From Chromera velia (taxonomy: Eukaryota), in assembly GCA_018398765.1 (NCBI GenBank), contig JAHBMJ010000274.1:1-51323 (forward strand): a stretch of 51,323 nucleotides of DNA, written 5' to 3'. The notes under the pieces are model-generated. The model worked only from the letters and a program-made list of their open reading frames with translations. It was not told the DNA's origin and made no database searches. This document shows, piece after piece, positions 5,542-42,305 of this stretch (positions are counted from its first letter, which is position 1; each line of letters begins with the position of its first letter). A program made the position numbers and the translations under genes.

Positions 5542-6899
5542 ACGGCACAAAAGCTTACAACTCGACGTTCTGTATATGTCAATAAGAAACTGTGAAAAAG
5601 AAGGACAGGTCCATAGGTAGATCCAGATGTTTAGAGGGAGACTAGTACAGAGTGTCACAAATGAGAAAGGATGAACGAGTAAGGAGCACTTGCGTTGGGA
5701 TAGTATGGACCGCGTTCAAGGACTGATACATATGGAGCAAGTGGAAGACATTCAAATGGATGAAATCAGTGAGCGATTGTTCTGGATGGAAAAATGTCTG
5801 GCAGGACTGAGAGCTGTGCAAAACTTCAGAAGAGGCGGTCAAAAAATGGAGGCTCCAGCAGACTCTCCATCGACCCTCTCTCAGTGACCTCCCTTATGCA
5901 TTTCTGTCAAGCTTCTAGCAGAACAAAGAAGCTGGATGCTAAGAAAATCATCATACAAAGCGAGAAAGCGAGCCGCGCTTCCTTAACTGACCTGTAGGTG
6001 TCCTCAAGTCTCCGTCCACCAACACCTGCAAACATGGAGGGACAGGCGTTCACACTTTATGCAGTCAAAGAAGCACTTCTGTCTAGCTTATTCTGCGTGC
6101 ACAAGGTCCCAAGGAAAAGACCAAGAGCCTAAAAAGCAGTGGGTCCGGACAGGCTGACTTGGGGGTTGACCCTGGGGCTCCGAAGAGTGTGACCTGCAAG
6201 GAAAGAGTAAGGAGAGCGATGAGAGCAGCAGTACTTTAACACTTAGATAAGGCCGGTAGCCCTTCCCTGCTTGAACAAAAGGAGCAGCAGCAAGCAAAAA
6301 GACGTTAGAAACAAGATCAAGATGGCTGGTATCCACTGGACTCACCTGCAAGCTCCACTTCGTGCCGACCGAAGATGTTCCAGCAACACCCGTCTCCTCC
6401 AGAGCCCCGAAAGTGCACTCCCGAAAAACAAGTCAAAACCGAGAAAACCCTCTCAGACTGTCACACATCTTCAAAAACCGTCAGAAAACATGTGACAGAG
6501 CGCTTTTTATGGCAAGATTTCTGTGGGAAAAGTCTGTTTGCTCAGAGGTTCAGGACTCCACAGTTTTGAACCTATGGACCTTCAAGACGGACAAGAGACT
6601 TCAGACCCGATTATTGGCCGACAGAAACAATTTTTGAAAGTCAGCTGCGTGCATCAGGGAAGGTGTTTTGAGACTGTTTTGGGTCAGGGACCTCGAGTTG
6701 CCCGCGAGATACTTTTGTGCGTCTTGGCAGGGAGTTCTGTCCCGATAAGCCACAAGGACCATGGGACTAAACGCAAATGTGCGACAAAAAATTTCTGTGA
6801 TACTTTGATGTGCTGCCGACGTTTGCCTAGTCGCCGTAGTCCGGTCTCCTCCGGCTCTCATGCTGATGCGTAAGGCCCCAGTCTGAGATGGCCTGGAAA

Positions 6900-7115: not shown

Positions 7116-7407
7116 CTATATTTTTTTATTTGTATAGACGCTTATATTAAACGTTGTTTAATAGAACGTTTATAACATATTAAAAAAGAACAGTAAATCG
7201 AAAACGCAGTGTATATAAGCTCTGAATGTAAGCTGCATATACTAATATAGGAATTTGTTGATGAATTGGTTTAAACAATTGAATTTATACCCTTGTAAGA
7301 ATTTAGTTTGTTTAGTCAATAGTATAGGTATAAATGAAACTGATGCTTATATTCACAGTCTGCTTTAGAGGTGGCCTGTATGGAGAACACTGCCTCCACA
7401 TCGTGAT

Positions 7408-7767
7408 TGAGAATGTCGCGGCCGGTGCGGCGGGCGGCCTGCCTAGAGTTTTGGACCCTGGGCGGCGCCGGTCACCCTCTATGCAGACAACAGCGTTTCG
7501 GGACCTCGGGCCACCACGGTATCGAATTGGGTTTCAGAAAAAACGCGGTCTGCAGCAATCGAAACAATCCAAACCGCCAGAAATTCATGGATTCAGCTAG
7601 CTTGATTGAGACTTCTAGCAGTTCGATGGATCGATTTAGCATTGACATTCTCTTTACCTGTATGAACCTGAATAGATCGTGTGCCTGTGTATGTGTATGA
7701 TTGGGTTCCCTCCGAAGGAAACGTCTTCGGAAGGTAGGTTATTCATCTACCACTATAATCAACGTTA
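7408..7767 (+). repeat. 5' LTR (TG...TA)
   Basis: Runs TGAGAATGTC...ATCAACGTTA; about 17 substitutions against the 3' copy by manual alignment (~95% identity). Confidence 0.95.
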
Positions 7768-7768
7768 A

Positions 7769-7783
7769 TGGTGACGAAGCTCC
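7769..7783 (+). promoter_or_regulatory. Primer binding site
   Basis: TGGTGACGAAGCTCC starts 1 nt after the 5' LTR; TGG is complementary to the tRNA CCA end. It differs from the iMet PBS TGGTATCAGAGC. Confidence 0.7.
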
Positions 7784-10079
7784 TATCAGATTTCGGTTTC
7801 GTTTGACTGCGTCCACTTCTACCAAAAAATAACCTTCTGATTCCTTCTATCGGCTAAAGTTTGGAGTCCTTCAGCCACTCATCGCTTCTTTCTTCCCTCC
7901 TCTCTTTCCATACAGACGCGAAAGAAGAAGAGAGAGAGAAAAGAAAGAGAGAGAGAAAGAGACGGTACGTCTGCTCTTTGGAGCGAGTCAGTCCCTCCTT
8001 CTCCCATGCATACCATTCATGAAGACTCTCCTTCCACTGAAGTGAGACGTCGTTCTCCCTCTCTTTTACCCAAAAATGATGGCCATGCTGATGCAGAAAG
8101 CCGTTGTTCCATTTTTTTGCCTCCGTCTAATTTTTGTAGGTATGAGACGGCTAGCCCTTTGGCAAAGCTGAATCAAACCTCTTCACTTTTTCCCTCTTCT
8201 GCCCCTCTCCCTCCAATTTTGCCATATTCTCACTCCTTTCCCAACATGAACGAAGGCGGTGCAGATGCAAAAGGCTCTCGTTCCCTTTTTCCCTCTCCCT
8301 CTGGCTTGCGTCCTCAAGAGACTTCAAACCCTTCGGTCAAAGAAACTGAAGAAAGACAAGTCTCTCTTTCTCTTTCCCCCTCTCGCCCTCTCCAACGTAT
8401 AGATCTCGCCTCTGCACAAGCTTTTTCTTCACCTCCATCTCATCTTGTCTCATCTTCGTTTCACATGATCCAACCTTGCAGCAGAGAGATGGCACCTAAG
8501 GCGGCCACGGCGGTGAGTCCAGTCAAGATACCTCTCAGGGTTCGACCTCTCCCCTTCTGTGAACTATCATAGTCCTCTTCCTCTGTTCCATCTCGTCAGA
8601 TCAATGTGGGAGTATCGCATGTTTCGGCCCCCAGATCTTCTTCTTCTCTCGCTCTTTTTCCTGCCTCAGAGTCTGTGTCTGTGAGAGGAAAAGAAGACAA
8701 CCATGAGAAAGAAGTGCATAAAAACAGTGAGACAGATAGGAAGACAGAAAAACAGTCTGATAAAGACCCTGTCCAACCTCCCACTTCCAGTTTCCTTCAA
8801 TCCACCCTTTTGCCTGAGTCTGCCCGTTTCAACGCAGCGGTGCTTGAAGGAAGGCAGAAGGCTGAATGGAAAGAAACCAAACTGAAGGAATTGGAAGAGA
8901 TGAAGCGGAAAGAAGTATGGTATTTGAGAGAGATTGAGACTCGTTTGGCCGTCTCTTAACCTTCACCTGCCCAGATCCCATCTCCTCCCTCCCAACTTCA
9001 CACTGTTCTTTCACCTGAATCTACTCATCTCCACAGTGCTCTCAATGCAGAAAGAGAAAAGGCAGAGCGGAAAGCAAAGCAGGTAAAAGAAATTGAGGAA
9101 TTGAGAAAGAAAGGGAAAGAGATAAGTGATTGGATGCAGGAGACAATGAAGAACAGTGGTCATAATCGTTGCCAACCTGAATTCGTCTCCACTGCCTCTT
9201 TTGGACACCCTCCCTGCCTGCAGGCGACCTCTGGGAGTCTTTACCCCCCCCCTGAGAGAGGACGGGGGGGAATTGATCAAGAAAGAGAGGCAGAAACAGA
9301 GAAACAGAGACCAATTATTGACAGAGACAAAGTGTTGCATGTCGGTAAACTTTCTTATAATCTTTCTTCACCTATGAATGCGACTGCGGACCTTCCTGAT
9401 GGAAAAGTCTAATTTTGCTCGTCCCTTACCCCCCTTTCACCTCCTGTGAATGCAGACCTTCCTGTTGGAAAAGTCCAAAGTCATGCATCTCTCTTTCCAC
9501 CTGTTTCTAGCCCTCTGAATGCGGACCATCCAGTTGGAAGCGTCCAATTTCAGAGTGTACCCTTTCCCCCGCCCATTCGCTTCTCCCAAAGCTTACCGAT
9601 ACAACCGCCTCTATCATCATCTGGTCTAGCGCACGGCCTAACTGGTCTCTGTGTCTCTGGTGTGCCTTGTGGGGAGAACCTTGGTGTCTCTCCTTCTTAA
9701 TCTTTCCTCCTGATAAGTATACACTATCCTTATCCATCCTCATACTCTGCTCACCCTTCCAAACCCCTTGTCTTTCCTATAAACTCTGAAAATTCTTCTC
9801 CTCACTCTTTAGGTTCTTATGCCCCAAAAGCTGAGAATCCTAGGCTTGAATTTTTTGATCCAAGAAATCAGTTTCTTCAGTCTAATTTTTCTACTTTTCC
9901 TAGTGCTCAAAGCGCACAACCTCTGCCTCCTTTTTCAACTAAAGTTAGCATAGAAGTAGGAAAAGAAAACGAAAAAGATGAGGCAATTAGTTTTTCCAGA
10001 CAGCCTGTCTGCAAGCTTAGACTCGTCACAAAGCGAAACTATGAGTCAGAAACAAGGCTCACGAAAGACAAAAAGGAGA

Positions 10080-11460
10080 AAAGAGAGAGTGACGCAGACC
10101 TTCGGCACCGTGACAAGTTGGTCGGACAAATCTTAGAAAAAATAAAGCAGATGCCTAAAGAAATAATTCTCTTTATGCCTAAAGGGAAAGGGATGAAAGG
10201 CAACCCTTTTCTTCATAAAAAAGTTGCTCGTCAGAAACGATAATTCCTCAATCTCTATAGAAACATGACTGAGCCATATTGACCAGCTGTTCAAAATGAG
10301 GTGACAGAACGAGCTCTTGATAGTTTTCCTCGTAGAGCAATCGAAATGCAACCTGAAGCGATTCAATATGAACTGCGTGCTGCTGGTATGTAGATTCGGA
10401 AGGGAATCTGGTCCGAGGAAGAGCAGAATACGGTTCCGATGAGGCTGACGTTCATAGAACTGGAGGCAATCGCTGTGCATATGCAGGGGTATGCCCTCGA
10501 TCTCCTCTTGCTGAGACCAGTCGAGATCATGATGAAGGTATGTAGATGGAAAGGAGAATCTCTCCAAAAATATGCTCTCCGTCTTGACAGAGAAGTGGAG
10601 TCAGAAATGAAATTCCTGACCAAACACATTCTCCCTGATACTTTTACTCTACGCCCTCATCTGCGTCGTCTCCTGCCGTCTGCTCCTGTTTGAAATCCCA
10701 CAGCGACCATCTCTGTGTTCTTTGCAACGGCCGGTCTGGATGACGATGTACACAAACACGCCTCTGATGCTCTGCAAAGATATCATGAACAGGTCATGTT
10801 TATCAGTGCTCTCAGTGATAAAGAAATTTAATGCACAGTATGGTTACTCACGAACACTCTCACTTTTGCTTCTGTCCCAATAGACATTGAACAGGGTCTC
10901 ATATACCCCTGGTTCGTAAATAATGTGAACAGAATAATGAGAAAATGTGGTGCATCTGTGTCTGAACCCGGACCTGACCCTGTTCTGAATGAGACCAGCT
11001 CGCTGGCTATCACACGCATCCAGCAGCACATGAATCGCATGATGAGAGAGCATGGCCATGCAGGTGGAAATCAGAGCCAGCCTGCAGCAAGTGTCCCTCT
11101 TACCCCTTCACAGACAAAGCCTCATTCAAACCAGCCACACGAAAGACAGAAAGGAGGATCGACTCATCAAGTCATTAAGCAGCCTCTCCATCAAACTCCT
11201 CATACATTTACAATGCAAGCTGCTCAGCCGTTTCTCTCAAATCCTCCTCCTCCCCCCCCCCCTTCTGGCAATCCTACCTCTTCTTCTTTGCAGGGTACAG
11301 GGCCACCTACTTTTGGCGTTAGCCCTCCCAGCAGTTCTTCCTCCCCCCCAACTGGATGGCAGGGAGGACCTGCGGGCTCATCTGCGGCCACTCGAGGAAG
11401 AGGAGGACTAACAAGAGGATGTGGGAGAGGGAGAGGCCAAAGAGGCAAGCAAAATGATGG
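10080..11460 (+). pseudogene. gag: Gag-like region (MHR-like motif plus RG-rich tail)
   Basis: WKGESLQKYALRL resembles the retrotransposon capsid xxGESxxxYxxR motif. TRGRGGLTRGCGRGRGQRG precedes the first 2A peptide. Position matches gag. Confidence 0.5.
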
Positions 11461-11461
11461 G

Positions 11462-11509
11462 TGGGTCAAGGATCTGACCAGGGAAGGTATTGAACCTAAC
11501 CCTGGTCCC
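11462..11509 (+). other. 2A/StopGo peptide 1 (WVKDLTREGIEPNPG|P)
   Basis: In-frame complete ExNPGP motif, resembling the avihepatovirus-type DLTxEG(V/I)EPNPGP. Confidence 0.88.
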
Positions 11510-12790
11510 TCTGGCACCGAAAAGGCTGCGGCAATGACAGCTCATCCTCCCTCCCAGGCTGAAGAAAACTTTGAGGGCCAAGAGAGGGAGGAGATGAACG
11601 ATTTCCCTTTTTCAGCACCCTCTGACTCTGATGAAGCGGAGTCGGAAATCTTTGCCTACCATGCGGCCGAGGTCCAGACGAGACTGCCTCATAGACAGCT
11701 ACGTTGGTCGAAACCTCACCCACGCAGGCGTCACAACCCAGACTGAGAGGGCGCTAGGCATCGGAGGAGGCAATCACAGAATGCCATCCCGCAAAGGGAT
11801 TCATACTCTGAGGCCCCTGACCCCCTTCCAAGTGATCCTGTAGCTGAGTCTGATCTTCTTATGATAAGCACTCTAGGGAGAGACTTTTCAACACCTCATC
11901 GGTCTTTTTCAGAGACCCCCCACAGGTCTGACCAGTCAGTTGCTCTCAACTCTCTCATGGTCACACCCCCGAAGCCTTTTAATTTTCATACACAGTTACC
12001 CACGACATCTGCCCATTACTACCCTCCGCCTCCAACAGTACCTCCCTTTCCTCTGTCCCTCCATATTCCCATCGCCCCTCCGACAGTCCGCTCAATCGCT
12101 GCTCCCGAAAGTCTTTCAAGCCCTCCCGCAAACCCCCTTCTTTCCCTCTCAATAGGAAAAGAGGAAATGGAAGGTCCTCCTGAATCCTTCCAGAGAGGGG
12201 CTACACGAAATGAGCGACCAGAAGGAGCTATGGCTGCAAACACAGACCAGCTTGATCATAAAAGGCTGTGAGAGAATAAAGGCCTTTCACCATTCTATGT
12301 GGTAGCAAAGGCAATCAAAGTAATGGGGGGAAAAATGACCGAAGACACAGTACACCCAGTTTTGGCAGACACCATTCTCACTCGATTCCTTCGGGAGCCA
12401 TTCCACCTCGGAACTCCAGCTCTAGAGAACATTTTTTCCCCCGCCACCTCTTTCCGCTCTTTGACTGACCTGGATATCAACATCTTGCTGAAGTATTGGG
12501 GTTTCAGCATGATCCCAATATCTATGCAGGAGGTTCATGACACCCTCGCTCAGCCAATGACCGACCCACACACGTGCCTCGTGGTGGGGGAGGCCTGTCT
12601 CGAAGAGACGGAATGGACAGTTATGGCTCCTTTTGAAGGGGCGCAGACCCAATCAGAGAGACAGAGCTGGACAGAATGGTCTATGAGAAAAGAAAAAGAG
12701 AGAGGAGTCACAGGGTTTGATCTGTTTTTTTGAGAGACAAAAAATGAAGGGACTGAAATGGCCGTCTTCTCACTCGAACGAATACAAACT

Positions 12791-12964
12791 TGTGAGATGC
12801 CTTCTTGTTGAGCATCTCTCCATGAAACGAACTCAAACACCCCCCGTTCTGTCTCCTACCCTGGCTGCCCTTACCCACACTTCGCTTGCACGCCCTGCCG
12901 TACCAAAGCCATGTTCTCGCCCCTCCGTGAACCTTCTCCTAACACTTTTTGCCCCCAGTGTAGA
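12791..12964 (+). pseudogene. RING-type (C3HC4-like) zinc finger within the polyprotein
   Basis: Manual translation in the polyprotein frame: CEMPSC*...CPYPHFACTPC...CPQCR. One TGA at 12809 hides it from the ORF track. Confidence 0.7.
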
Positions 12965-13357
12965 CGCCTTCCTTCCGCAGAGATGAACAAAGCCGAGGAC
13001 TACTGCAGAGCAGTCTGGAAGAGTACGGTCCTACAGCAGACGCTGCCATCTGATCCTATCGCACTGTAAGGACGATTGATTAAATCAATCCATACAAGGA
13101 TCCGATATGCTCAATCTCACCTCACACTCTCAGACGTGTGGCACCTGCATGACCAGCTTAACCACTACCTTGTCGCGTGTTTATGCAGTAGGGAGTGGGA
13201 AGAGTGGGGAGAACACGACGATAGGGAGTCAGATAGATGGGGAGCTGGAGATAAAGAATCTCCTATGAATGTCAATGGAGGCCATGCAGATGCAAACGGC
13301 CCCCAGGATCATTTAGGACCGCCTCCTCAAGAGGAAAACATTCCTTGACCTAGCAGC

Positions 13358-13408
13358 TGGGTGAGAGATCTGACAGCAGACGGGGATGTCGAACCTAACC
13401 CAGGCTGG
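13358..13408 (+). other. 2A-like peptide 2 (WVRDLTADGDVEPNPG|W)
   Basis: In-frame GDVExNPG, resembling the iflavirus-type WxxDLTxDGDVESNPGP; the final Pro is replaced by Trp. Confidence 0.8.
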
Positions 13409-14008
13409 GATGAGGAGAATGATTCTCAGGGTGATAAAGCCCCGGGCAACGACGCCCCTGTTTCAACCCCGCTGTCTTTTCCAGAGCTAGCTCCATCCCT
13501 TACGCCTGCCTCCATGCCTCCCCTTGAGGCACCGTCAGAAGTCTCGGACCTGGGCCTCTCTGACATCCCATTAAATTCCTATGCTCCCTCCGAGGCCGCC
13601 TCAGTTCCGTCAGATGGCACACTCGCTTCTTTAGAAGATCTTGAGGGAATTGAGCTTAGGGATGGAATGTATGGAGGAGGAGGATATTGGGAAAGGAATG
13701 CTGTAAACGACTTCGAGCGGGCGAGAGGGTCCGCACGAGGTTACATCCGACAACTCTACGCCACCCTCTCTGTCATTCCTGCACTCTCTGACCTCGATCT
13801 CAGTGGCCCTGTGATCCTCGGCATCTTCTACCGATCTGGCTGGCACGACGGATCAAATGGTTTCTGGTCAGAGCAGTCGCTAACCTTCATCAACTACGCC
13901 GGTGCCCTCCAATTCCTCCCTAATCCCCTTCCTACCTCCTGGTTTGGTTTTAACCCCTTTTTTAAAAACGTTTCTCAACCAACCCACCCACCACCAATGG
14001 TAGGTGGT

Positions 14009-14056
14009 TGGATCAGAGATTTAACCGAAGAAGGAATTGAGCCGAACCCCGGACAT
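14009..14056 (+). other. 2A-like peptide 3 (WIRDLTEEGIEPNPG|H)
   Basis: In-frame paralog of peptide 1; the final Pro is replaced by His, followed by Pro. Confidence 0.8.
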
Positions 14057-17000
14057 CCAAAGAGGGATGGAAGAGCAGAAACATCAAGAAACAGGGGAAG
14101 TCAGTCATCTACTTCGAGGCCCATTCGCATCCAGCCTTCTCAGGCCCTTCGTGAAAGTAACCGCAACCTCCCCCCACTGCTCGGCCCCACACCTACGATT
14201 CCTTCTGTTCCTTTCTTTGAGGTCCCTTTTCATCAAGAAACCCAAGAGACGTCACAGGCACAAATGGAACCAATAGAGGGAGGCTTTCTTCCGAGTCCAG
14301 ACGCTATCTCAGCGTTCGGACCAGTCTCATCCCCGAGACCGACAGCAGCAGCAGATCTGCCTCCAAACCCGTTTGCCCCGCCTCTACCCCAACTGTCCAT
14401 CTTTTCACCTCCCCCAAACCGAATCCGTCTCTCACAATTGACCCCAAAAAGAACAGTTCAACTATCATCTCCTCCTCGGAGACCTGTAGAGCTGAGACCT
14501 GCAAGTGCTCAGCGATCAGGAAATTACTCAGTTCGGACTGACACTTAGACAAATACAGGTTCGTCCTCTTTCTCATCTTCTGCCGGTGCTGCTATCCTAA
14601 ACCAGAGTCAGCCTTTGTCCTCTATCAGAGGCCCAGGCCTAGTGCTCCGCCTCCACTTGTGTCTGATTATGCCCCCGGAGACCCCTTTTCCAATGATGGT
14701 CAATCAGGAAAAACGATACGGGTCTTACAGAGGACCCCGATAGAAGAACATCAGTTGAACTTCTCCTCCTCCTCGACATCCCGCCCCTTTGCACCTCCCC
14801 AACCCCTTGACCCCAAAGCTTCTTCTCAGTCGACCACATTAATGTTAGGACCAGCTGGGCAAATACAATCAGAAATACAGCCTGAGAATGGAGCGGTTAT
14901 TGGTTCTTTGAAGGAAGGCCGATCTGTCAGGCTCACTCGCAAGAGAGCCTTGCCAGCGAATGAACCTGCCAGTGGCACCGGCATGGAGGAACGTTGGCTC
15001 ATCAACATCCCCATATTGCTGAGAAGCCTTCAACGGATGTGCACTTCTGTGCTGCGACCCAAGGCGCAGGGAAAGTACCCCATACGCGTCCTCCTCGATG
15101 GTGCTACGGATAAGTGCAGGGTCGTTAGTGAGGCTACGCTGCAAATAGAACCGAAAAATGGTGCCATTGAAGTCCCAGATCCCCTCAAGAGAATCCCTCT
15201 CAGACAACTGAAACCGTACACCTTTAAAACGACCGATGGACAGCCCCCCACCTCGGTCCCCTCTGTGGTATGGAGGCGGGCGTTGCAAAAAAAGGGATAC
15301 CCCCAGTCCGCACCTTTGGCAGTCTACCCAACCAGCCACTGGCTGCCAAGTGTTAAAGACAGGGAGTTTGCGATTGTCCAACCTACAAAAGACAGCACAG
15401 GGGATTCGGAACAACTGATTGGTTTTTTCGGTGGAAAGAACAACCTTTTGCATCTGCTAGTAGGTCGGGGGGACCAGTATCTGTTCGATGTTGAGTGCGT
15501 GCTTGCCCCTACATAAGAAAATGAGGAGGCTCAAGCCATCATGACACGTCTCCTAAAAATATCTTTCTGCTCCCTCCCAAACAACCTCCTCAAATTCCTG
15601 CTTGAGGACGAAGGACCAAACGCTCCTGATCCTTCCCGACTGCCTTTCCACCCACCTGACAAGAGCTAAATCTTTAGTCGTGTTCACCTCTTCCATCTAG
15701 AGAGGTTTGATGAATACCATTCAGCAGCGAGAGAGGAGATGCGTGAGCGAGGAGACACGAACCCAAATGAGGATCAAACGAAAAGGATGGCTGATAAGGC
15801 ACTTGACAGTGTCTTGCCTGAGCGCCTTCGCATACCTTGCAGCGCTCGCAGCCTCATCGATGAAAACCACAGACTGCAGGCTTTTCTCTACATCGATTAC
15901 AATCTATCCAACCCTGTCATTACTCCTCCGAGTGGTCTAGTGAGATGGAAAGGCATTGACCCCCGTCCCACAGCCCACGTCATCCTGAAAAAGCTGGACA
16001 GACCTGAATTTTTCAGGTTGTGGAAAGCCACTCGAAAGTCTGGTGCTAAGATTCCGGAGAAGTGGGAGGATCTTTTCATCTCTGAAGAAAAGCATATGCG
16101 GGAGCCCCACAACTCTATCCTGGCTCTGCGACACGACACTTTCAAACCCCTGTTGAACCCAATGTACGCGAGTGCCGATGCATACGACATTTGTGAGGTT
16201 CAACAGTTAGACCCTCGAGCATGCCTCGGACACAACTCGTACAACTGCTTTACCAGCAGTGGACTGACCTCCTGCTGCGGACACCGGCCTGGACTCCAGT
16301 ATAGTTGGAAGGATGGTACGTTTTTCCTCTGCATCTGTGAACTAGACCCCACATGCACCTCCTGCTCATGTCCAGGAGGGGTAAAGTTCAGAGAAATTCG
16401 GGATGAGCCCCTTCACGGGGAACTAAGCCCTTGCTTGAATGGTTCGTGAGGAAGCGTTTCGAGCTTGAGCCAAATGAATGGGACAAGCTTCCGTTCTCTC
16501 TAGCCACCGTGTTTTGACAGATCTTTGTCCATGTTTTTTTTGTCGCACAGAATCCAACGGAGGCACAGCAAGAGGACCGCCCTCCCAATCTAGGGTCAAA
16601 GCTCTACAAAGCGTCTTTACTGAGGGTCGAACTCCCAGCCCAGCGGTGGCACGGAGTTGAAAAGGCAGAGCCATCTCTGTCTTTGACCAAGAATCAAAAG
16701 CACAAAATAGCAGTAAGGCAGAGGTTGACCGAGCCCTTTATCAGAGACCTCAGTCCTTCGATCAGGCTGTCTCTGAGCGACCTGCATGTTCCGACTGGGG
16801 TTCACCCTGACGATGTTCGGGCCGCGGCCCCTCCTCGCCCAGGGGTAGCCGACACCAGATTGCAGTCGGTCCCAGAAGAGCCCGCTGTTCCTTCCAACTT
16901 CAAAGAGGAATCGGAAATAGGCCATAATTTCCTCCTTCTTGAGGCCCTCTATCAAGGAAAATGGGAGAGGCTCATGGAAGGGCAGACGGCGTTGACATAC

Positions 17001-17704
17001 TGGCAATCGACTGGCAGTCAAGTTCCGTCTGCCCGGGCTCTGATTGATTTGATCTGGAAGTCGATCTTGCCAGACAGACTGAACACATTCATTTTGATTC
17101 ACCCTCTTGTCTTCCTGCTCGATCTGCTAACAGACAGTAACGGACACCCTCCAGCTTTTCTCATCCCCATATGGCTCAGGCACACACCCAGTGAGCCTAG
17201 GGCGAAAGCATCCACCCTGCTCCCAAACTGGGTGGTCTTGATGAGGATTTGGGGGTCCGCTGTTTTTTTCTCTCTGGAAAAGCAAGCCCAGTCCAGGCTG
17301 GGAAAGGGTGGTCAGATTGATCAAGCGTCCGACGGCCTTCCCCTCCCTCAACCGTGCGAGAAAAGCTTTTATGCCTGGCTTCTTTATGAAGTTACTCAAA
17401 AGCCCAGGCAGGCTGTGCCTCCTTCCTCTTCTTCATCTACGGGTCTCTCCCTCCACCGCCCCCGCCCTCCACGTCTGACGCTACCAGCACCCTTACCCGC
17501 AGAGGAAGCGCCCTCCCGTTTATCGGCTGCGCCAAGCACGCCGCGTTCCCAATTTCTGGATCAGTGTCTGCAATCCTTCCCCCCCCAAGAAAGAAACACC
17601 ACGAGAAAGAGGCTGAGAATCCGTGATAAGCGACGATTTTCCCCTGTCTCCAGAGAGTTTGCGATCGATATCATGCGCTCCACAACCCGACGGCACGTCG
17701 GGCC

Positions 17705-18040
17705 TAGCAGATCTGGATCCACGTGGCAGCGGATACTGCCAGTTCCATTGACATCATGAGTGTCGATGAAGGTATCCCCCTCCAACTGATCTTTAACAGG
17801 GACGGGGAGCTCCACCCAAACCCCGCTTTCTTTGCGAGAGGGGAGTTTTCGAATGAAAAACAGATGATTCAAGGAGGGGGCGCTCAATTCCCTTCACTGA
17901 GCCGCGGTCTTATCCGAATTCGGATGGATGACACTCGACCACAGACTCTGCGCTCATCTGGGAAGACCCTAGTCCACTTTGCCAAATTTGGTTTCCGAAA
18001 CCACTTCCTCATTTTTGGTCTCAGTTGGCTCCGACGTTGC
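17705..18040 (+). pseudogene. Aspartic protease (retropepsin-like)
   Basis: IHVAADTASSIDIMS is a D-T-G/A-type active site, and the downstream FLIFGLSWLRR fits the hhGxxWL motif. Confidence 0.65.
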
Positions 18041-18660
18041 TCCTTCACTTGGAGAGAATTGGAACCCTACAGGGATGGAACCCGACATATCGAGATCCCC
18101 CATAGAAAAAACCTTCAGGGAATTGAGACGGGATGGAGCCGCTGGCTTCTTCCCGTCGATATCGATCTGATTCACACTCGGGTCACGTTTCTCCGGATCG
18201 ATGAACCCCCCCCTGACACCTACCTTTTCCACCCCGATACCCCCCTTTTTCACCCATCCGTCTCCTTTGTACACCGTCAAAGAAGCCCGAGGGAACGTAT
18301 GACGGATGGGACGGGTGGCAGGGCTCGAGCCCGCCCGGCAGCCTTCTCCCCCGACCCGACTCAAAAGGAACCCAGTCTCCCCGACGGAACCCTCAGTCCC
18401 CTGTCCCTCGTGGGGGACCGTGACGAGAGACCCATTTGGGCAAGGAGGACGTCCTCACCAGACGCCCCCCTCAGCAGAACGAGACCAGCAGCCAGCTTCT
18501 CTCCCCCAGTGTTCTCCAGAAGCCCATTGAAAAATTTTGTCGGAGGAGAGTCGTCGGGAGGAAAGCACTCTGGGCATGCAAGAGGAAGAGCAGTATGTGG
18601 ACGAGGACCAACCCAAAATCAACCCGTATCAGCAATGGGAGACGGAGTAGGATGCAGTGG

Positions 18661-18840
18661 AGATGTAATTGATGGAGCAGCAGGAGGAAGCTCCCCCGCC
18701 TGCCCCCGAATCTGCAGAGCCGATGCAGTTGGTGGAGCAGTAGGAGGAAGCTCCCCCGCCTGCCCCTGAATCTGCAGAATCGATGTAGTTGGTGGAGCAG
18801 CAGGAGGAAGCTCAACCGACTGCCCTCGAACTTGCAGAGT
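18661..18840 (+). repeat. 3 x 60-bp tandem repeat inside the polyprotein
   Basis: Three aligned units (GATGCAGTTGGTGGAGCAGCAGGAGGAAGCTCCCCCGCC...), probably encoding MQLVEQQEEAPPPAPESAEP. Confidence 0.9.
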
Positions 18841-19819
18841 CGATACCGATAGATGAACATCTAGAGAGCGAGGAGGAATTGGTCGATTATGACCTTTGAA
18901 TGAAACGGAAACAAGTCAACAGAATGTTTTTATTTCTCTCACTTCCTTGTCTATGCTTCCACCTCCTGCATTGAATAATCTTCCCTCTTATCCCCTCCCC
19001 CCTCGACACTCTTCCCCCTCCCGTCCCTTCTCTTTTCCTCTTGCTAATATGCAAGTCCCAAAGCAGTCAAAGATTTTGCCTCCAAAAAAACGACTGCGCT
19101 CTCCTTCTAAGAGCAAGAAGTCAAGAAGGAAAGAGCGAGGCCGTGAGAGAAAGGAAAAGTTCGATTGGGAGGTCGGACAGCGTTGTCACTCGCAGTCTCG
19201 CTCAAAGCGACGTTCCTTTAATCAAAGAAAGAGCAACTGAAAGAAACAATCGGACTCTATTCATGCTTCAATGTTCTTTACTTCTTTTGTTGTGTCTCAA
19301 ATGTTTACTCCTCCCTCCACCTCTACTCCCCCTCCTCCCTTTTTTCTTTACGCTGGTGCTGGTAATTCTGACTCTCCCTTCGACGAAGTTTCTTTCCTTT
19401 GTAACCCTCTTCCTCCTCAACTCACGCAAATCTATTCAGATCATTTTTCACCTGCAGTTTTTTCTGACTCAGTTGAGAAAGGAGGCCTTTTCTGTCTCTT
19501 TGGATCTCTTGCTTCAGAAGAGAACAGACTGACAGCAGAGAACCTCTAACGAACGTCTTTGTCTTCTTCTTCTCTTCCCCTCTCCTCTTCTATGCACGAA
19601 CTTTTTTCTTTTAAAAGAAAGGCCACTGACCATTTTTCATGTTGTTCTTCCTCAGCTGCTGTACGGGAGGAAGACGATGATTGGGATAAGATCTCATCTG
19701 CAGAGTACATATATGCATCTTCAGTTTGTCTTTCTAAAAATTCCGATTCATCTGACTGCATCTTTGCCAACGTGCCCGACAACAAGCGTCCTAATAAGGT
19801 GAAAGTCAGTGCAGAATAT

Positions 19820-20700
19820 GCATGTGAGTACCTGCAGTATGTACATTAGGAAGTGGGGCATATTGGTAGAAAGGCTTTCTACACTTTCGTCTCTCCGTAT
19901 CTTGCCGTGAGAGGCCTGAGAAAAATGTGTGAAGAACTAAGAGCAGAGTGCAACACTTGCCTGCAAGTCCACGGTCTCCTAAGGCGCCTTCATGGACAGA
20001 GAGGCTCTCATCTGAGAATTTGTGCCCCCCTGCAGCAGATAGCGGTGGACACAATTTTTCTGTATGGTCAACCTATCTTGACGGTCATGTGTGAAGCGAC
20101 AAGTTTCCTCATGGCCATCCCACTGAAAAACACGAAGGCAGAGACTGCATGGAAAGCTTTTGAAGAAGGATGGTTGAGACCTTTTGGCTGTCCTCTCTCT
20201 TTTCGTGGGTTTGTAAAAACGGACAATAGGAGTGAATTCAAGGCCGTTTTCTCCTCTATGCTGGAGGACTTAGGAGTTAGACAGTTATGGACCCCCCTCG
20301 GTCTACCTCGGGCCAATGGGCTGCTCAAACATCGGCATGACGATTTGAAACGTCTTGTCGAAGCAGCTCTTTTAGACAGAGGCCTAGAAAAACGGCACTT
20401 CCGTCAAGTTTTTCCTTGCTGTGTGTCTCAACTTAACCTCTTTCCCTCTGTCAACTCTGATAAAAGATTTCTGTATGAACGTCTTACATCTCAACGTCTT
20501 CTCCCCCCCTCTCTTGAATGCATGCTTGCTGAAGTTCATAAGAAAAGTCCGACAGCACTCTCTCCCCTGAACTTGACTGTCAGAGAAAGAGTGTATTGGA
20601 AGAACCCTCGAAAGACCTACCGCTCGCTGGACATCAAGTGGCGGCTCTTTGAAGTATCCTCTCTCGTCCCTCACTCCCGCTTCCTCGTCTATTTGACTCC
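19820..20700 (+). pseudogene. Integrase (HHCC + DDE core + SH3-like tail)
   Basis: VH*EVGHIG...CNTC; IAVD; KTDNRSEF; TPLGLPRANGLLKHRH, where the catalytic E appears mutated to K. Confidence 0.92.
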
Positions 20701-22109
20701 CATCTCTAAGTCTGGAGAGAGACTGCAGAGTAAGGAGTATCTTGCCCACTCTTCTTGTTTTGTTCGTGCACCTTCTCACCCCCTCGCTTCTTTCTCCCGC
20801 CCTGCCCCAACTGATCGCCAGTCGCAGTCTGAGAGACCCCCTGAGACTAGAAGGGATCTCTTTATAGAGGTACCAAGTGATGACAGACTACAAGAACCAG
20901 CTCGGTCTGCAAGCGATCAATCAAAAAAGAAATCTTCCTCTTCTTTCTCTTTTTCTTCCATTCCTTTTGCAGAAAGCATGGAGTTCAAAAGTCAAAAAGA
21001 CTCGTTTCCCATTGGGTTGGCCTCGGCCGGCCCTCTCCCAATCAATGAAAGAGAGGCACAGTCTTCAAAGGATTCTCGCTCACTTCCAGATGGAAGACAG
21101 ACCGATGAAGTCAGAGCGGGAAAGAAATCTGTATCTCAGTCTGCTCATTCTTGCTCTTCTTCTTCTCATTCTTTTCCACGTATTCTTGAAGGAGAACCTA
21201 TTTTTTTGTTTTCTGAGCCTGTCCTCCCTCAACCTCCCTCTTCCCAAAGACAACCCAAGTCAGAAAAAGACACTGAACGCCAGAGTTTACTGACCCCTTC
21301 TCCTTCAGATGGAGAGACGTGGCGTTTCACAGTCTAGAGAAACCCAGAGCTGTTGAAGAAGTGTCCATTGATCTTCTGGAAGGATAAAGAGCTGCAGAAA
21401 GGCATAGTTGGAAGGAAGGTTGGGATATTGACAGATGGATTTCTTCTTGTACATGTATGGGGGTCCTATTCACAAGGACAACTGACAGTGTGTGAAAGAG
21501 TCCTTGCCCCACAGTTTCATCATCCCAACAACACTATCTGTTCCACCCTGACTCCTTCACTCACTTGCTTTCCTCACATCCAAAAGGTGTCGCCTTCTTG
21601 TCTGAGAGAATCAGAACTTTTCCTTTCTTTTTCTCGTTGCCTGCTTCCTGATGCATGTGCAAAAATCGCAAAGCACCTTGACTCAGCCTCAATCTCTCGT
21701 CTTGGACTCAATCAGAGCAAGACAGCAGACGCGATCAAAAAGACGGAGGACTGGTTGAGAGAAGCACTCAAACTGTCCCCCGATCTTATACTTCAGGAGA
21801 TAGAAACAGCGTCTACTGACATTCTATCAGACAGCGAAGAAGATAAATCGAATCAGCTGATAGAAAGTGCTTTCTTTTGTCTTGATGGTCTAACTGACCC
21901 TTGACAGTTCCCAATTCCTTTTTACTCTTCTAATGTCCCCAGTCCCTCTCTCCCTGATCTATCCGTCTCGTCTTCGTCTTCTTCTTTTTCTTTTTCTTTG
22001 TCTTCCTCCCTGTCCTCTTCAGCAGCTGCAAAAGGAGAGAAACAGGCTCATTGTTTTGCTGCAGGAGCAACGCATCAAAAATTCTCAGTACGTCGCCTCT
22101 CTCCAGATC

Positions 22110-23070
22110 AGGTGACAGACTTTAAGGCAGCCAGGCAGAAGGAGTTAGACAAATTTGAACGTTTTCGTGTATTTAAGGCAGTTCCAGTTCAGTCGGTTCC
22201 CAAGGGTTCAGTCGTCTTGCCTACACTGTGGGTAGAGACCTTGAAACTGAATGACGAGGGTGAAAGGGAATTCAAGTCGAGATGGGTGATTCGGGGAGAT
22301 CAGGACCCGCGAAAAGGTCTCGAGGTGGCAACTGACCTATGTCCGCCCAAGAATATTTGCTTGATGCTACTTGCAGCACTCAGTAGCGCAGGTTTCGACC
22401 CGTCTTTCATCAGCACTGTAGACGTAGACAATGCATTTCTGCAAGCACCAATGAATGACATGATGTATGTACTCCCTCTGAAAGAACATCCTGACTATGG
22501 CAAAAAGCTCTGGCTGTTGCAGCAACGTATGTATGGACTCTCTGAAAGCCCCCTTCTTTTTCAAAAATTTCTTGAATCAAAACTTCTCAAACATGGATGG
22601 GTGAAATCTCCCCTCTGGGGAATTTGGTGGAAACTGTCAACTGACGGGGAAGTGGTTGCATTGATGTCTCTCTATGTCGACGATGTCTATGTTGCCAGCC
22701 TCAGTGGCCCAGCAGAGAGCCATCTGCAAGAAATTATAAGAAGTTGAATGTAAGCAGATCAGATCACTGCAGAGGTATATTGGAGTGTTCTATGAGGTTA
22801 CAAAGGATGAGATCTAGTGCTCACAGGAGTCTTATACAGCTAGTCTGAATGACAGAGGTGTCAGACCCCTAGTCAATCCCATCCCCGATGCAGCAAAAAA
22901 GCAAGCAGACACTTCTCCCCCCCTGAACAAGAAAGAGACAAAAGCTTTCCAACAGAGTCTGGGTGAGCTTTCTTACCTGGCCTCTTTTACGCGTCCTGAT
23001 TTGGCGTACGGCACAAGTCACATGACACAGTGGAATGCCGTTCCAACCGTAAATGCTTTTCGATGGCTCC
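22110..23070 (+). pseudogene. Copia-type reverse transcriptase (RVT_2)
   Basis: FKSRWVIRGDQ, VDVDNAFLQA, MYGLSESP and YVDD (22673-22684); after a frameshift, RYIG...SQESY...GELSYLASFTRPDLAY. Confidence 0.96.
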
Positions 23071-23139
23071 AGCGACTTGTTTCCTGGGCTCGTGCATACT
23101 CCCTCCATGGAGTGGCAGTTCCTCGCTCTCCCAGAGCAG

Positions 23140-23620
23140 AGCCCCTGCATGTTAAATTACATACTGATGCATCTTTTGGCACCCCAGCCCATCCCGAGCC
23201 TCAAATCGGGTAGGTACTCACCGTCTGTGGATGTCCCCTTGCCTGGAAGTCCATCAAACCGAAGAAGGTAGCAAAATCCACAACGGATGCAGAATTCATT
23301 GCCGCAGAGAACGGGGTCGAACTTCTCTCCTCTCTCCTCCCTTTCTTTGAGAAGCTTTGGCCGAAAGTACACAGAACGCTTTGGTCTGACAGTCACGATC
23401 TCGTGTCCCTGGTCGGTCAACCCGTCTATTCTGGTGCGAGGGCAACAGTTACTCAACAGTCTCTTGCCACTGAAATCGACGACCTGCGAGAGAGAGAAGC
23501 AGTAGAGACGTCTCTAGTCAGCATATTGCAGAAAGCAGTGCACCAGGATGTTCAAGAGAAGTTTATTGCCCTTGAGCATATTTCAACTGTCCGGAACGTT
23601 GCTGACCCTCTCACAAAGGG
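23140..23620 (+). pseudogene. Copia-type RNase H
   Basis: HTDASF, AWKS..KKVAKSTTDAEFIA, WSDS and HISTVRNVADPLTK. Confidence 0.93.
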
Positions 23621-26600
23621 AAAAAGTACGCATAAGCTCTACCGACTGTTAGAACAGAAGGGAAGGGAAGCACGGAAAGGTGCGACACATCCTCCTCCTG
23701 ACCCACAAAGGAGGCCTATTCTTCTGCAATCTGACCTTCAAGCAGAAGTGTCAGTGTTCTTTGAGAATGTGAACCGAGCTCAAACCACTTTCTCACAATT
23801 TTTTCCACGCTTTCCCCTCATCTGTCCGACTCGTGCTCTTTGTGATATATCTGTGACTCCTCTCTCAGCCTTTCACTTCCGCATGCTCTCCCTTGCCATG
23901 GCTTGCTCAGCTTGCCATCAGATAGGACATTCATCTAACACATGCCCTGATGTGGAGGCAGAATGCAAGGGAAGAAAGGAACTCTACCTTGAGCAAGCAG
24001 GACATATTGGCAAAGGGTGTACGTTCTGTGCTGCGGTCGGCTTCCTCAGCAAAGCCCATCGAGCAGCAGATCACGCGGTTGACCAGAGAATGCCTCCAAC
24101 CACACCGGCTCCTGTCACCTTGATTGGACGCCTGGTGCGGCCTCAAATCCTCTGAAGTGCACCCTTCGGGACCTGCATGAATGCATAAATGCATGGCATT
24201 TGCTTCATTTTTTCTTCCTCTCCCTCTTCTCTTCCTATGCATGCATTCCTCTCTCTCATTGTGTATATCAACAAAGACCAGGCCTGGCAACACCACAATG
24301 AAATTGAATGCCTCCCTTGAATGTCTCCTCCCGTTTCTTCTTTTTTTGAATGTATATGATCGCTTCTGTTCTTTTATTGTTTCCTTCTCTCACTGCAACT
24401 GGACAACCCTAATTTAACCTCCACTTGAATTCCATATAAGCCATAAAGTGAAGGAGGGGCGCTCGAAAAAGAGATTGAAAAAGAATGAATAAAGTGAAGG
24501 AGGGGTGATCCCCCGCAAAAACATTGACAAAGTGAAGGAGGGGCCCCTTCTCACAGTTTTTTTTTCTTTCACACGAACAAACCTGCATGCGATTTTTTCG
24601 GTCACTCCATGCATGTATGGAGCTTGACTATAAAGAACCATAAAGTGAAGGAGGGGGCGGCGCGACGAAGCGCTATGTCCTTCCTCCGGAAGATAAAAGA
24701 AGGAATACAGACAGCTGCCACAAGAAAGATCAAGTGAGTCAATGGTATGAAGGGAGGGGGACGCCTCACCCTTTGCCTGGCAAACTAACTCTGACCTCTC
24801 TTCCCTTCTCTGCTTGTTTCTCTTCTCTTCTCTTCTCTTCTCTTCTTTTCTGTATTTCGATTGTTTCTTCTTCCTCACCCGGCAGGGACCCCTCCCCCCT
24901 CCTTTTCTGTCATGAGTTGTCTTTCTCCCCTCTTAAAATAGCTAACCGCAAGAATCAAGCCACATTTTTTCTCTTCAGTTTTTTCCTTTCTCTGACACTT
25001 CTCTTCTTATGTCTGACTGAATAAGCGATCGATCATTTGTCTTTCTGTTCCACTGTGTACCCTCTTCTCTCTTCCCAATGAATGCATTTGTATACATAAA
25101 TGCATACATGCAAGTGAAAAAGAAAAAGACATTTGATTCCTGCAAGACCATAACAAAGAAAAGAAAGTGCGAGACTGTCAGTTGAACCTACCCGTCTCTT
25201 GGCAGACCCTTGCAACCAGCCAATGCATGTCTTCTCTCCCTCTTCTCCTCTTTTGTGAACACAGGCAGGACGAATGCATGAATGATTCTGGTGGTCAGCC
25301 CTCAGGCCGAGCAAGAATCTGGTTTCTCTCTGTGCCTTCTCTTCTTAGACTCTAATCTCGACTGCTGCCGACAATCCTACAAGAAGAAAAATACCCTCAA
25401 AGGAGTCCACGTCAAAGCACCAGGTGTCCCCCCACCAATTGTGCGAGACTCCACAACGGCAGCATACATGAACATTTTTGTCGAGACTGGATTCGAAAGA
25501 AAGAAAGAAAGCTGGAGGAAACGGATTCAACACTGAAGTTCTTCTTGCATTTTGACCTGTTCTATGTTTATTTTGGAGGTTCCTTTTTTTCTTCAGTTTT
25601 ATCTTCAGAAGAAAAGAGCAGTCTGAAAGAAGCAGGGAAAGGAAAAAGATGATCACGTCGAGTTTGCACTAACCGGTCAAGTCTATGCCTCTTGTGTCTC
25701 CATATGTCTCCCTTTCCTTCCTTCCCGATCACGTAAGTGTCAGGAAGAATAAAAAGGACTGACAAGACGTACCAACAGCTGCAGCTTGAAGATCTGCAGT
25801 CTTTCCTCGTTACCTGCAGTCAAAAGATATATGAATGTGCGAAATAAGACAAGAGAATTCATGTAAGCATGCTTAGTCTTAATGCTCCTCTCCCCTTTTT
25901 CTCATCCCCGGTCTCAACGGAGTTTGATGCATAGAATTACTTGGCCACTTCATGAAAAAGTGGCTACAGTCTTTCTTTTTTCTTTGTTTTCTGTTAGCTG
26001 GTCCTGGTACCTTGCCCTTATCGCTCTACCAATTCATTTTTCTTTGTGTGGTTTCCCCAAACTTGAGAGAAATTGCCGACTTGACCTCCCTTCCTCCATA
26101 CCGCCCTCCTTTTCTCACAACTGTCAAGCCTGGCTTTCTCTCTCTCGCTGAAAGATTACTAAAAGAAAGAGTTCCTAACTTCTCCTTTCCTGACTCCCCC
26201 CTTTCTTTCAATCCCTTCGTCCCCAATACCATAACATCATGCGAATTTTGAGGACAGCGTGAATGCATGCATGATGCGGAATGATGGTGTTTGTGAATGA
26301 ATCATCACCACACCCCCCCACATCACAATCAACACAACCAACCGGTTTGTTATACCACCAAGTCATCATTTAAAGGATCTTCTATGAGATATATAAAGCC
26401 AGAAAGACACGCGAACGGACCTGGTTGCTGGTAGATGATGGAAGTAAGAAGACGGTGATGATATGCGATTCGGAACTGATGCCGTCTCCTTGTCCATGTC
26501 ATTGCCCCCCCCCTTCTCCCCTTCCTCATCACCAACCTTTCTCCTTTCTCCTCAGCCTTGTCCTCCCTCAGAAGCGAGACGAGAAGCCAGGAAATGTAGT

Positions 26601-27022
26601 GGAAAGAGCGTTTGAGACGGAAAGCAAGAACTAAAGCAAGAAGAAAGGTGGTGTAGCTCACCTCATTGTGCTCTTCTCCTACCTATGTCCCTTTCCTCCC
26701 TTTCATCTTCCACTCAGCCTTCCACACATAGAAAAGGCACCGTTTCACACCTTCAAAAGGGAGAGGACATTTACTTAAACCATATACAAAAAGGGCAGGA
26801 AGTTTGGAAACAATAAGATCCGTCTACCAGGTTGAAGAAAGCCATAAACATGCATGCATGAAAAAGAAATTCGCGCGCACCACGCGCGTCAGATGCATAA
26901 CTATGCCTTGCAGGATTCATTTTCAAGCCCCACAAGCAGGATTGCGGCCGGGGCCTCCGACTGTGGCGGGCCTCAAAGCAACGTGCTCGAAGCCATGAGT
27001 TTCTTGCACGTTTGGACCCACC

Positions 27023-27040
27023 AAAAGTGAATGGAGGGGA
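27023..27040 (+). promoter_or_regulatory. Polypurine tract
   Basis: AAAAGTGAATGGAGGGGA lies immediately upstream of the 3' LTR. Confidence 0.8.
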
Positions 27041-27041
27041 C

Positions 27042-27401
27042 TGAGAATGTCGTGGCTGGCGCGGCGGGCGGCCTGCCTGGAGTTTTAGACCCTGGGCGGC
27101 GCCGGTCACCCTCTATACAGACAACAGCGTTTCGGGACCTCGGGCCACCACGGTATCGAATCGGGTTTCAGAAAAAACGCGGTTTGCAGCAATTGGAACA
27201 ATCTAAACCGCCAGAAATTCATGGATTCAGCTAGCTTGATTGAGACTTCTAGCAGTTCGATAGATCGATTTAGCATTGACATTCTCTTTATCTGTATGAA
27301 CCTGAATAGATCGTGTGCCTGTATGTGTGTGTGATTGGGTTCCCTCCAAAGGAAACGTCTTCGGAAGGTAGGTTATTCATCTACCACTATAATCAACGTT
27401 A
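27042..27401 (+). repeat. 3' LTR (TG...TA)
   Basis: Colinear copy of 7408-7767, followed by the TSD GTGAT. Confidence 0.95.
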
Positions 27402-28439
27402 GTGATCCAATCGAAACATTTAAGTTTTGATCGGCCAACAACTGAATCTGAGCTGCGTCTTATTGTGGAAATCTAGGTGGGAATATGAATCGTATGTCAC
27501 GTCTGCATACTTTAAGAGTAGTATCATGTAGTCTGGATTGTGACCTCAATCAATCGATAATCGACTGACATTCGACTGACAGTGTCTTAGCTTACAGCCA
27601 TATGGTAAAAGAAGCTGAACATAGAAATGTTTGTGTCGGTTTGTGTACAGTCGTGTGTTGCTGTCGTGTTTACCAAATTGAATGCTGTATGATTGATAGG
27701 CAAGGGGCGCAAGCGAGTTTGTATTAGTATAGTCACTTATGAATATTTGTTCGCAGCGGAGAGACCAAGCAGTGAGATTCCGACCGTGTGTGTCTTCCTG
27801 TGGTGAAGGAAGAGTAGGTAAAGAGGTGCCTCCGGCAGTCACTGTGTACTTTTCTGTGTCTATCAAGAAACGTTGAGGCTGAACAGCAATGAAGTTTACA
27901 CAGCAAGGCATGCAGAATGGTTGGGCATCAGATTATGGCAGACATACATATGTAGAAGGAAGAAAACTAGGGAGTAAAAGTCTGCTCCGCAGTTAGGCAT
28001 GCAGGATAGTCAAGCATAGGGGTGTACTATCCTCCTATTAAGACACCAGGGGGGGGGGGGCATCCAAGTTTGCTCCGTTATGCCCGTGGATGGCGGGACG
28101 AGCATCAGGCGCTTTGCGCCTGATGCACTGGACACCGCCCCCCCCGGTGTCCACTGCTACCGGCCCATGCAAGAAGGGATACCCCCCCCCGGTGTCCATG
28201 CGGAGTTGCCCACCGAGGCTGACGTTCAGCTTTTTAATGCATGCATGCATGCATACATTTTTTTTTTTAGAGGCCCATGCATACAACAATGCTCCATAAC
28301 ATGTTTTATGGGTGCAAACCGGGGAAAGTCTCTCAAAATTATGCACCTGAACGTGCCTGAACGGCAACACCCACCCAACCTTCCTCACTGAGTCCTCTGC
28401 TAATCAGCACCGGCCACTCAACCTAAAAAGTTCGGCGAA

Positions 28440-42060: not shown

Positions 42061-42305
42061 GCTGTGCGCTCCAACTGGAAAATATGGAGAAAAGCAGAAG
42101 GGCATGAGGGAATCAACTTGTATCAATAGAGCTAGAACGGCAATATTCTTTTTAGAGACTCACCAATCACATGCTCACCCATAGTAACTGCGCAAAGGTA
42201 GCACGCTTCTGAATCTTATGTCCTGCACAGATAACAGTTTAGAAAAGACAGAGAACTGAAACGTACAATCGGATTACTGCGTGCATACGTAATACATGCA
42301 TTCTG

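Follow-up and report, generated by a model that had tools for sequence, protein, structure and literature searches.

Within a 51,323-bp window of Chromera velia DNA (contig JAHBMJ010000274.1, positions 1-51,323), a long terminal repeat (LTR) retrotransposon of 19,994 bp, with no N inside, occupies positions 7408-27401. The reading that we consider probable is that a multi-copy, 20-kb Ty1/Copia family is represented here by a dead copy, and that the long frame of this family is likely split in translation by three 2A/StopGo motifs. A preliminary description of the same DNA had noted an LTR pair and a perfect target-site duplication (TSD) enclosing 19,994 bp, and both were recovered: alignment of the LTR pair defined a 5′ LTR (7408-7767) and a 3′ LTR (27042-27401) of 360 bp each, and the sequence GTGAT is present in identical copies at 7403-7407 and 27402-27406. 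All the features of the element described below are on the forward (+) strand. Direct LTRs with a TSD are those of an LTR retrotransposon; in addition, a TGG-initial sequence resembling a primer-binding site (PBS) is located 1 nt behind the 5′ LTR (7769-7779), a polypurine tract (PPT) precedes the 3′ LTR (27024-27039), and the internal region measures 19.3 kb. Both LTRs have the form TG...TA and not TG...CA, the latter being a common convention for LTR retrotransposons and no absolute criterion.

The reverse transcriptase (RT; 22058-23141, with a YVDD motif) is of the Copia type. It matched RVT_2 at 22.2-22.7 kb (E=4.7e-15; 56.3 bits against a cut-off of 31.6), the sole domain of the element that passes its Pfam cut-off, and no RVT_1 match was obtained. 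The integrase (IN; 19820-20800), with its H2C2 zinc finger, core and C-terminal part, lies upstream; it matches the relative P0001 at ~50%, and the Pfam families Integrase_H2C2 (PF17921, E=0.0018) and rve (E=0.0012) at 19.8-20.3 kb, both below the Pfam cut-offs. An RNase H-like region (RH; 23142-23660), recognized by its motifs (TDAS ... ADPLTK) and by a 43% match to P0001, follows the RT and gave no Pfam RNase H match. Since the integrase precedes the RT, the order is that of Copia, as had been proposed, and is not the Gypsy order protease (PR)-RT-RH-IN.

The best coding path through this copy runs from the first in-frame ATG at 8006 to the last stop at 24153-24155 and comprises 5,383 codons, interrupted by 30 premature stops and 4 frameshifts; the copy at 7408-27401 is a decayed, dead element. 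Stops are depleted in the main frame much more than chance would allow, which bears out the earlier remark that long stretches stay in one frame: in 8006-14545 there are 15 stops in the main frame versus 84 and 135 in the other two, and in the later segments 2 versus 22/34, 1 versus 21/15, 1 versus 8/10, 5 versus 48/71 and 2 versus 13/24. Downstream of the coding path (24156-27041) the three frames contain 35, 29 and 38 stops, i.e., no depletion. The two LTRs differ at 17 of 360 positions (95.3% identity; Kimura two-parameter distance 0.050), with 17 transitions and 0 transversions. Eight of these transitions are at CpA and six at CpG (14/17), and the differences between sibling contigs are likewise mostly transitions. 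The transition-only divergence of the LTRs suggests that cytosines in Chromera repeats are methylated or deaminated.

Sibling copies were found along nearly the whole element. When the element was split into 30 bins and compared with public contigs from four runs (runs are denoted X1, X2 and so on), contigs of at least 80% identity were present in 30, 30, 29 and 30 of the 30 bins, mostly at 90-99% identity. The 4 frameshifts are all compensated in siblings and are hence private to this copy: at ~14654 the sibling gene model P0002 reads through (with loose contig ends in all four runs), at 16424/16427 sibling contigs of all four runs carry one additional letter, at 17634 one additional letter is present in X4 and X5 (and loose ends in X1 and X2), and at 22737, where this copy has suffered a 2-nt loss inside the RT, sibling contigs of X1 and X2 carry two additional letters (GC). 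For six of the 30 premature stops a check against close siblings was possible, either by a sibling protein (11744, 12269, 13346 and 14546) or by a contig (10691 and 16515), and all six are read as R or W, so that an alternative genetic code is not needed. The Chromera gene model Cvel_16283 matches 15844-16443 and 17771-18766 at 100%, and is therefore a spliced model of the present locus.

Much of the length of the element is due to 6,198 nt that separate the first 2A-like motif from the protease-like motif, here termed the cargo. A HMMER scan with 12200-14095 as query (E of at most 0.001) gave 10 matches, namely five Chromera models and five unrelated proteins that match solely via 2A motifs. 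Three other Chromera gene models, P0002, P0004 and P0005, match the cargo at 87-92%. P0005 aligns with all of its 467 aa to 11213-12613 (90%), so that the RGG tail of the Gag-like region, the first 2A-like motif and the first cargo protein are joined unbroken; P0002 covers 13307-15510 at 89-90%; and P0004 joins 8489-8518, 9224-9343 and 13283-13747 colinearly. At the other border, a sibling contig of 1,948 nt reaches from the cargo into the protease-like region (16234-18179); it shows 104 differences and 2 gaps, each gap being an additional letter (at 16427 and at 17634) by which the frame is restored. Since siblings compensate the 4 shifts and read sense at the 6 checked stops, the cargo is, on these alignments, a family trait and not a nested insertion. 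The proposal of a distinct giant, cargo-carrying lineage is thus supported, as a multi-copy Copia family of Chromera velia. Long contigs of X1 and X2 with ~78-83% identity were also observed over 19016-24476; they are colinear, have a depth of 109-225 and an 881-nt spacer (875 nt here), and may represent a younger sister family.

The cargo can be divided into three parts. Cargo protein A (11507-13405, 633 codons), covered by P0005 over 11213-12613, has a disordered start followed by a hydrophobic region, and carries a RING-like motif at 12791-12961 with eight Cys/His in C3HC4 order; the first gap of this motif is of 4 residues, and its match to zf-RING_5 (E=0.22) is below the cut-off. An OTU-like reading of 12272-12730 was rejected: the catalytic Cys and His positions are S and E both here and in P0005, and no tool supported it. 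Cargo protein B (13406-14053, 216 codons) has a conserved core, with 65% over 139 aa to the diverged relative P0006 and 87% in the best 30-aa block. Cargo region C (14054-17707, ~1,225 codons) is fused to Pol, has a Cys-rich stretch near 16150-16380, and contains three of the private frameshifts (~14654, ~16425 and 17634). No family match was obtained for cargo protein A (Pfam and PDB sequence search) or for cargo region C (Pfam, PDB and Atlas), and no domain was found in the cargo as a whole by Pfam, PDB sequence search, Atlas or AlphaFold. PDB sequence searches of the Gag, protease and cargo segments gave matches with E>0.5 or none, and Atlas gave no usable match for 15670-16446 and 17708-18160. 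A protein search limited to longer proteins, a limit that excluded the known siblings and gives these blanks little weight, returned no relatives for 14902-16446 and, for 17708-18535, only the gene model of the present locus itself; no related locus was found among metagenome and viral contigs. Hence, of the ~6 kb of accessory domains that had been announced, the 6,198-nt cargo is present family-wide and no domain was identified in it.

The element contains the 2A core three times, each time in the main frame, and the other 31 kb of the window contain none; across 300 codon shuffles the core was found once in total. Motif 1 (11462-11509) is of class B type, with W at position 16, and ends in NPG-P. 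Motif 2 (13358-13408) has the core DVExNPG and a terminal W, and agrees with class A, D(V/I)ExNPGP, at 7 of 8 positions. Motif 3 (14009-14056) is again of class B type and has a terminal H. Class B 2As require W at position 16 (PMC12338488). Motifs 1 and 3 both have this residue and the class B core EG(I/V)Ex(N/H)PG, the terminal proline of the class being present in motif 1 and replaced by H in motif 3. Motif 1 is the same in P0005, and is identical to the peptides B56 and B58 in Table S2 of PMC12338488, of which B58 is P0005; these are predicted Chromera 'host' class B peptides, listed there with no retrotransposon context, and the main text contains neither 'Chromera' nor 'Copia'. Motifs 2 and 3 were not found in that table. 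The active peptide B6, whose activity in HEK293T cells is 0.84 (PMC12338488), differs from motif 1 at 2 of 16 residues and is identical to motif 3 at 14 of 16. The terminal W of motif 2 is also found in P0002 and P0004, and the diverged relative P0006, one frame off, fits GDVEPNPG-W and excludes a terminal P; the W was therefore inherited and is not the result of decay. NPG-W is a rare natural end that is ~91.5% active in lysate (PMC12846837), and the P-to-W and P-to-H changes of P2A kept >80% of the activity in lysates (bioRxiv 2026.09.24.754024). Furthermore, motif 1 directly follows the RGG tail, at the expected end of Gag, which counts for a functional 2A.

Other 2A-like sequences were observed along the way. 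A contig of X4 and X5 matches at 14016-14049 only the coding letters of motif 3 and then diverges; in these letters it reads a class B 2A with a terminal P and the same 16 residues as B6. By its sequence, another Chromera element carries what is predicted to be a canonical 2A. Four unnamed proteins (P0008-P0011) contain two or three class B/class A 2A motifs each, and P0009 resembles, by eye, a totivirus-like polyprotein.

If the motifs are functional, ribosome skipping at motif 1 would release a Gag of 1,167 aa, and skipping at motifs 2 and 3 would free cargo proteins A (633 aa, RING-like) and B (216 aa). The remainder, cargo region C plus Pol (~3,370 aa), would then be matured by the protease of the element. 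If skipping were imperfect, as the W and H ends would favor, Gag-to-Pol fusions would arise as a minor product and could carry Pol into the particle. In other elements Gag is dosed against Pol by frameshifting or splicing, a role that 2A would take over here. The cargo proteins would most likely be accessory factors acting on host processes, and the RING E3-like module weakly hints at ubiquitin. In a bolder and decidedly tentative version, the StopGo sites ending in P, W and H would act with graded strength and set the Gag:Pol ratio in a ~5,400-codon open reading frame (ORF) longer than that of the planarian element Burro, in the manner of multi-2A viruses, and would release two virus-like accessory proteins, one of them a host-aimed RING E3 ligase.

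Several points weigh against this interpretation. Two of the three motifs lack the terminal proline, and P0002, which keeps the H of motif 3, has the preceding G changed to E, so that it reads NPE-H. In published work, class B activity was lost entirely when the PGP motif carried a P-to-A change. In cells, all the changes at P19 cut activity by 40-100%, and in the same screen no highly active 2A linked to a retroelement is of class B (bioRxiv 2026.09.24.754024). The only tested Chromera class B peptide, B7, which comes from another locus and ends in NPWP, was inactive (PMC12338488). Skipping at the three motifs is a prediction from their sequences, and a likely one. Gag, protease and RNase H were assigned by motif or position only; when 7,982 candidates of 491-2,000 aa were scored, the RT had a single relative, Cvel_2899 of Chromera (55%); and both AlphaFold single-sequence models had such a low pLDDT (37.8 and 36.6) that a fold search is meaningless. 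The linkage of the whole element was built from overlapping pieces of different copies, and no sibling record spans it all. In one X1 contig (depth 31), 11075 is followed directly by 18696, so that the cargo is skipped. Finally, siblings differ from this copy at the frame junction between protease and integrase.

This junction (18535-18897), delimited with sibling contigs, contains a 60-bp sequence repeated three times in tandem (18662-18844). In all four runs the siblings are one base shorter at 18535 or 18541, and no compensating indel up to 19100 was found among the matches listed. With this loss the siblings read an E/Q-rich frame to 18897, the integrase being in the other frame, and IN-RT-RH may thus lie in a second frame of the family. 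Judging from these contigs, there would be either an indel within the 60-bp repeat or a conserved family shift before the integrase. We hold a single 5,400-codon ORF to be rather likely from Gag to the protease, and unproven beyond it because the siblings lack one nucleotide without compensation among the listed matches. Hence, the ~5,400-codon polyprotein of the preliminary description stands as a coding path, with 30 stops and 4 frameshifts in this copy, and its continuity between protease and integrase is unproven in siblings; that it is a single polyprotein holds for the one long frame, which the three in-frame 2A-like motifs, missed at that time, probably split. At 18712, loose ends of X4 and X5 match from ~19632 (by eye), which corresponds to a 0.9-kb deletion in some copy, out of frame and lacking GT-AG ends.

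The alternative that survives best is that of a two-frame family, where Gag-cargo-protease (~3,600 codons) is connected to IN-RT-RH at ~18.5-18.9 kb, either by splicing or by a -1 shift that is conserved. The 5,400-codon ORF would then exist only in this copy, via a 1-nt gain, and functional 2As would be compatible with it. We regard this as a real possibility, though the lesser one. It accounts for the shorter siblings of all four runs, for two contigs that run across 18787-19026/19042 with no frame-changing gap (0 and 12 gap letters), and for the change 18741 T>C, which abolishes a stop in the other frame. However, a compensating indel might be placed within the 60-bp repeat, since the contigs are short there and 9 loose ends exist beyond those listed; there is no slippery heptamer in the right frame; and three of four folded windows were unremarkable, the remaining one having z=-2.2, so that no clear stimulator was seen.

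It is also conceivable, but unlikely, that the giant family is the same and the 2A motifs are inactive leftovers of a captured LINE (long interspersed nuclear element) or double-stranded RNA (dsRNA) virus sequence, the protease cutting everything, as is assumed for Burro. The two ends that are not proline and the sibling that lost the G of motif 3 fit such leftovers, as do the high frequency of class B motifs in dsRNA viruses, where they are commonest (PMC12338488), and the fact that the three motifs have been seen as sequences only. Against this, a relative of 65% identity has retained motif 2 although the flanks of the motif have drifted, the W of motif 2 is a recognized natural active end (PMC12846837), motif 1 immediately follows the RGG tail, and all three motifs are in register. 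The last alternative, a 6-kb nested insertion or assembly chimera within a Copia of ordinary size, is very improbable and largely refuted: the X1 contig that skips 11075-18696 would suit it, but this contig also lacks the protease-like region and therefore reads as a deletion derivative, if the protease call is right, the frame crosses both borders in siblings (P0005 and the 1,948-nt contig), the element has no N, it would still measure ~13.8 kb without the cargo, and, in line with the earlier statement that no TSD-bounded insertion is present, the cargo borders have no flanking direct repeat of at least 10 nt (two 8-mers are shared, as expected by chance, the null mean being 2.8).

The remaining parts of the element were delimited as follows. 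The Gag-like region (8006-11506, 1,167 codons), assigned by position and a motif only, has a P/S-rich N-terminal half, a hydrophobic core (~10244-11050) and an RGG-rich tail, and has no zinc knuckle; within the core, the stretch at ~10547-10585 is presumably similar to the major homology region. Pfam and PDB sequence searches of this region were blank. The aspartic-protease-like region (17708-18160), with D-T-A-S and GLSWL motifs, was likewise assigned by motifs and position only, and Pfam, PDB, Atlas and fold searches were blank. Between integrase and RT there is a spacer of ~400 codons (20855-22057) with an extra hydrophobic segment (21338-21901) and no significant Pfam match; in P0001 the spacer is only ~70 aa. 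A CCHC zinc knuckle of perfect pattern (C-x2-C-x4-H-x4-C; 23901-23942) was found after the RNase H-like region, near the end of the frame (zf-CCHC_4, E=0.05). The 2.9-kb 3′ region (24156-27023) is non-coding, as judged from the absence of stop depletion, and contains four extra PPT-like copies, at 24445, 24491, 24529 and 24642. A Pfam search of its six frames gave no match, and nothing reached the gathering score in Rfam, where two weak matches were far below it.

No similarity was found between the element and the neighboring LINE or the flanks. This LINE (31660-35053, minus strand) is broken, matches RVT_1 (E=8e-19) and Exo_endo_phos (E=7e-6), and has no 2A core. Tandem arrays at 29373-30678 and 47374-47956 consist of 70/73-bp and 35-bp units that are mutually similar, and scattered units of them are present at 27892-28024 and 39872-40070. 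Inverted repeats of 51 nt and 96% identity (46718-46768 and 50302-50352) lie 3.5 kb apart and enclose a nested 102-nt hairpin (48473-48708); the unit at 46718-50352, which gave no Pfam match in 6 frames, is possibly a non-autonomous DNA transposon. Dispersed repeat copies of 84-92% identity, with internal palindromic motifs, are present at 3876-5544, 30681-31145 and 42305-44006.

Typical Ty1/Copia elements measure ~5-6 kb and have a coding capacity of ~1,400-1,800 aa (usually 4-5 kb of coding sequence), so the Chromera element is about 3-4 times the usual size. It shares with them the LTRs with a 5-bp TSD, a PBS-like site, the PPT, the position of the integrase before RT/RNase H and the RVT_2-type RT. 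It differs in its 19.3-kb internal region between 360-bp LTRs and its ~16 kb of coding sequence, in its TG...TA ends, in the 6.2 kb between Gag and protease, in the three 2A-like motifs, in having the CCHC knuckle after RNase H and not in Gag, and in an RT that is 55% to its nearest database relative, which is also from Chromera. In Chromera, 3.7 Mb of Copia have been reported by a study that limited the spacing in its LTR search to 1-15 kb (PMC4501334), a limit by which structure-based detection would have missed a 19.3-kb class. Pieces of the element sit in databases as uncharacterized genes. In the literature searched, with most subscription journals, Repbase and the supplements of two preprints outside the search, we found no 2A-partitioned Copia, giant Copia or Chromera Copia families.

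The 2A-like motifs resemble the published class B 2As in W at position 16 and the (E/R)EGIEPNPG core, and differ in that the latter are listed as host peptides (PMC12338488); should skipping be true, the element would provide a native context for these predicted Chromera peptides. Being naturally conserved, the NPG-W and NPG-H ends offer a test of whether, as recently found, 2A can do without its last proline. A 2A-like motif inside the frame, sometimes beside accessory domains, is shared with known retroelements. Odon in 2013 reportedly described 2A in APE-type LINEs. A C-terminal 2A on one Ty3-like RT, as well as LINE ORF2p with DUB domains, is described in bioRxiv 2026.06.17.732966, and 'LTR retrotransposon-like' contigs are among the 2A-bearing reverse-transcribing elements of bioRxiv 2026.09.24.754024. 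In the texts of these sources the retroelement 2As are mostly single motifs in non-LTR elements (~79%), and neither a Copia element nor a set of three motifs between Gag, cargo and Pol was found in the passages considered. If skipping occurs as proposed, it would be a new way for an LTR element to dose Gag versus Pol, beside frameshifting, readthrough and splicing (for gag-pol recoding, see PMC5009743).

With regard to size, Ogre elements (16-25 kb in total, with 1.9-6.5-kb LTRs and 11-13 kb inside; PMC6431247) are comparable in total length, but they are large mainly via their LTRs, which in the Chromera element are only 360 bp. A close parallel is that of the planarian giant LTR elements Burro/GYPSM1, which have a Gypsy-like PR-RT-RH-IN order, 25 kb of internal sequence and a polyprotein of 4,873-5,140 aa (PMC6431247). 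The cargo of Burro lies between Gag and protease and includes MATH, BIR, BCL2, ankyrin, Env and a RING-finger-related motif (PMC6431247). The huge polyprotein, the accessory cargo with a RING-related motif and the insertion site are thus alike in both, whereas Burro is Gypsy-like, has an identified cargo and, in the passages considered, no mention of 2A (the review contains neither 'copia' nor 'Ty1'), and the Chromera element is a Copia of 5,383 codons, if continuous. This comparison suggests that Copia, like Gypsy in the case of Burro, can reach a polyprotein of ~5,000 aa via cargo between Gag and protease.

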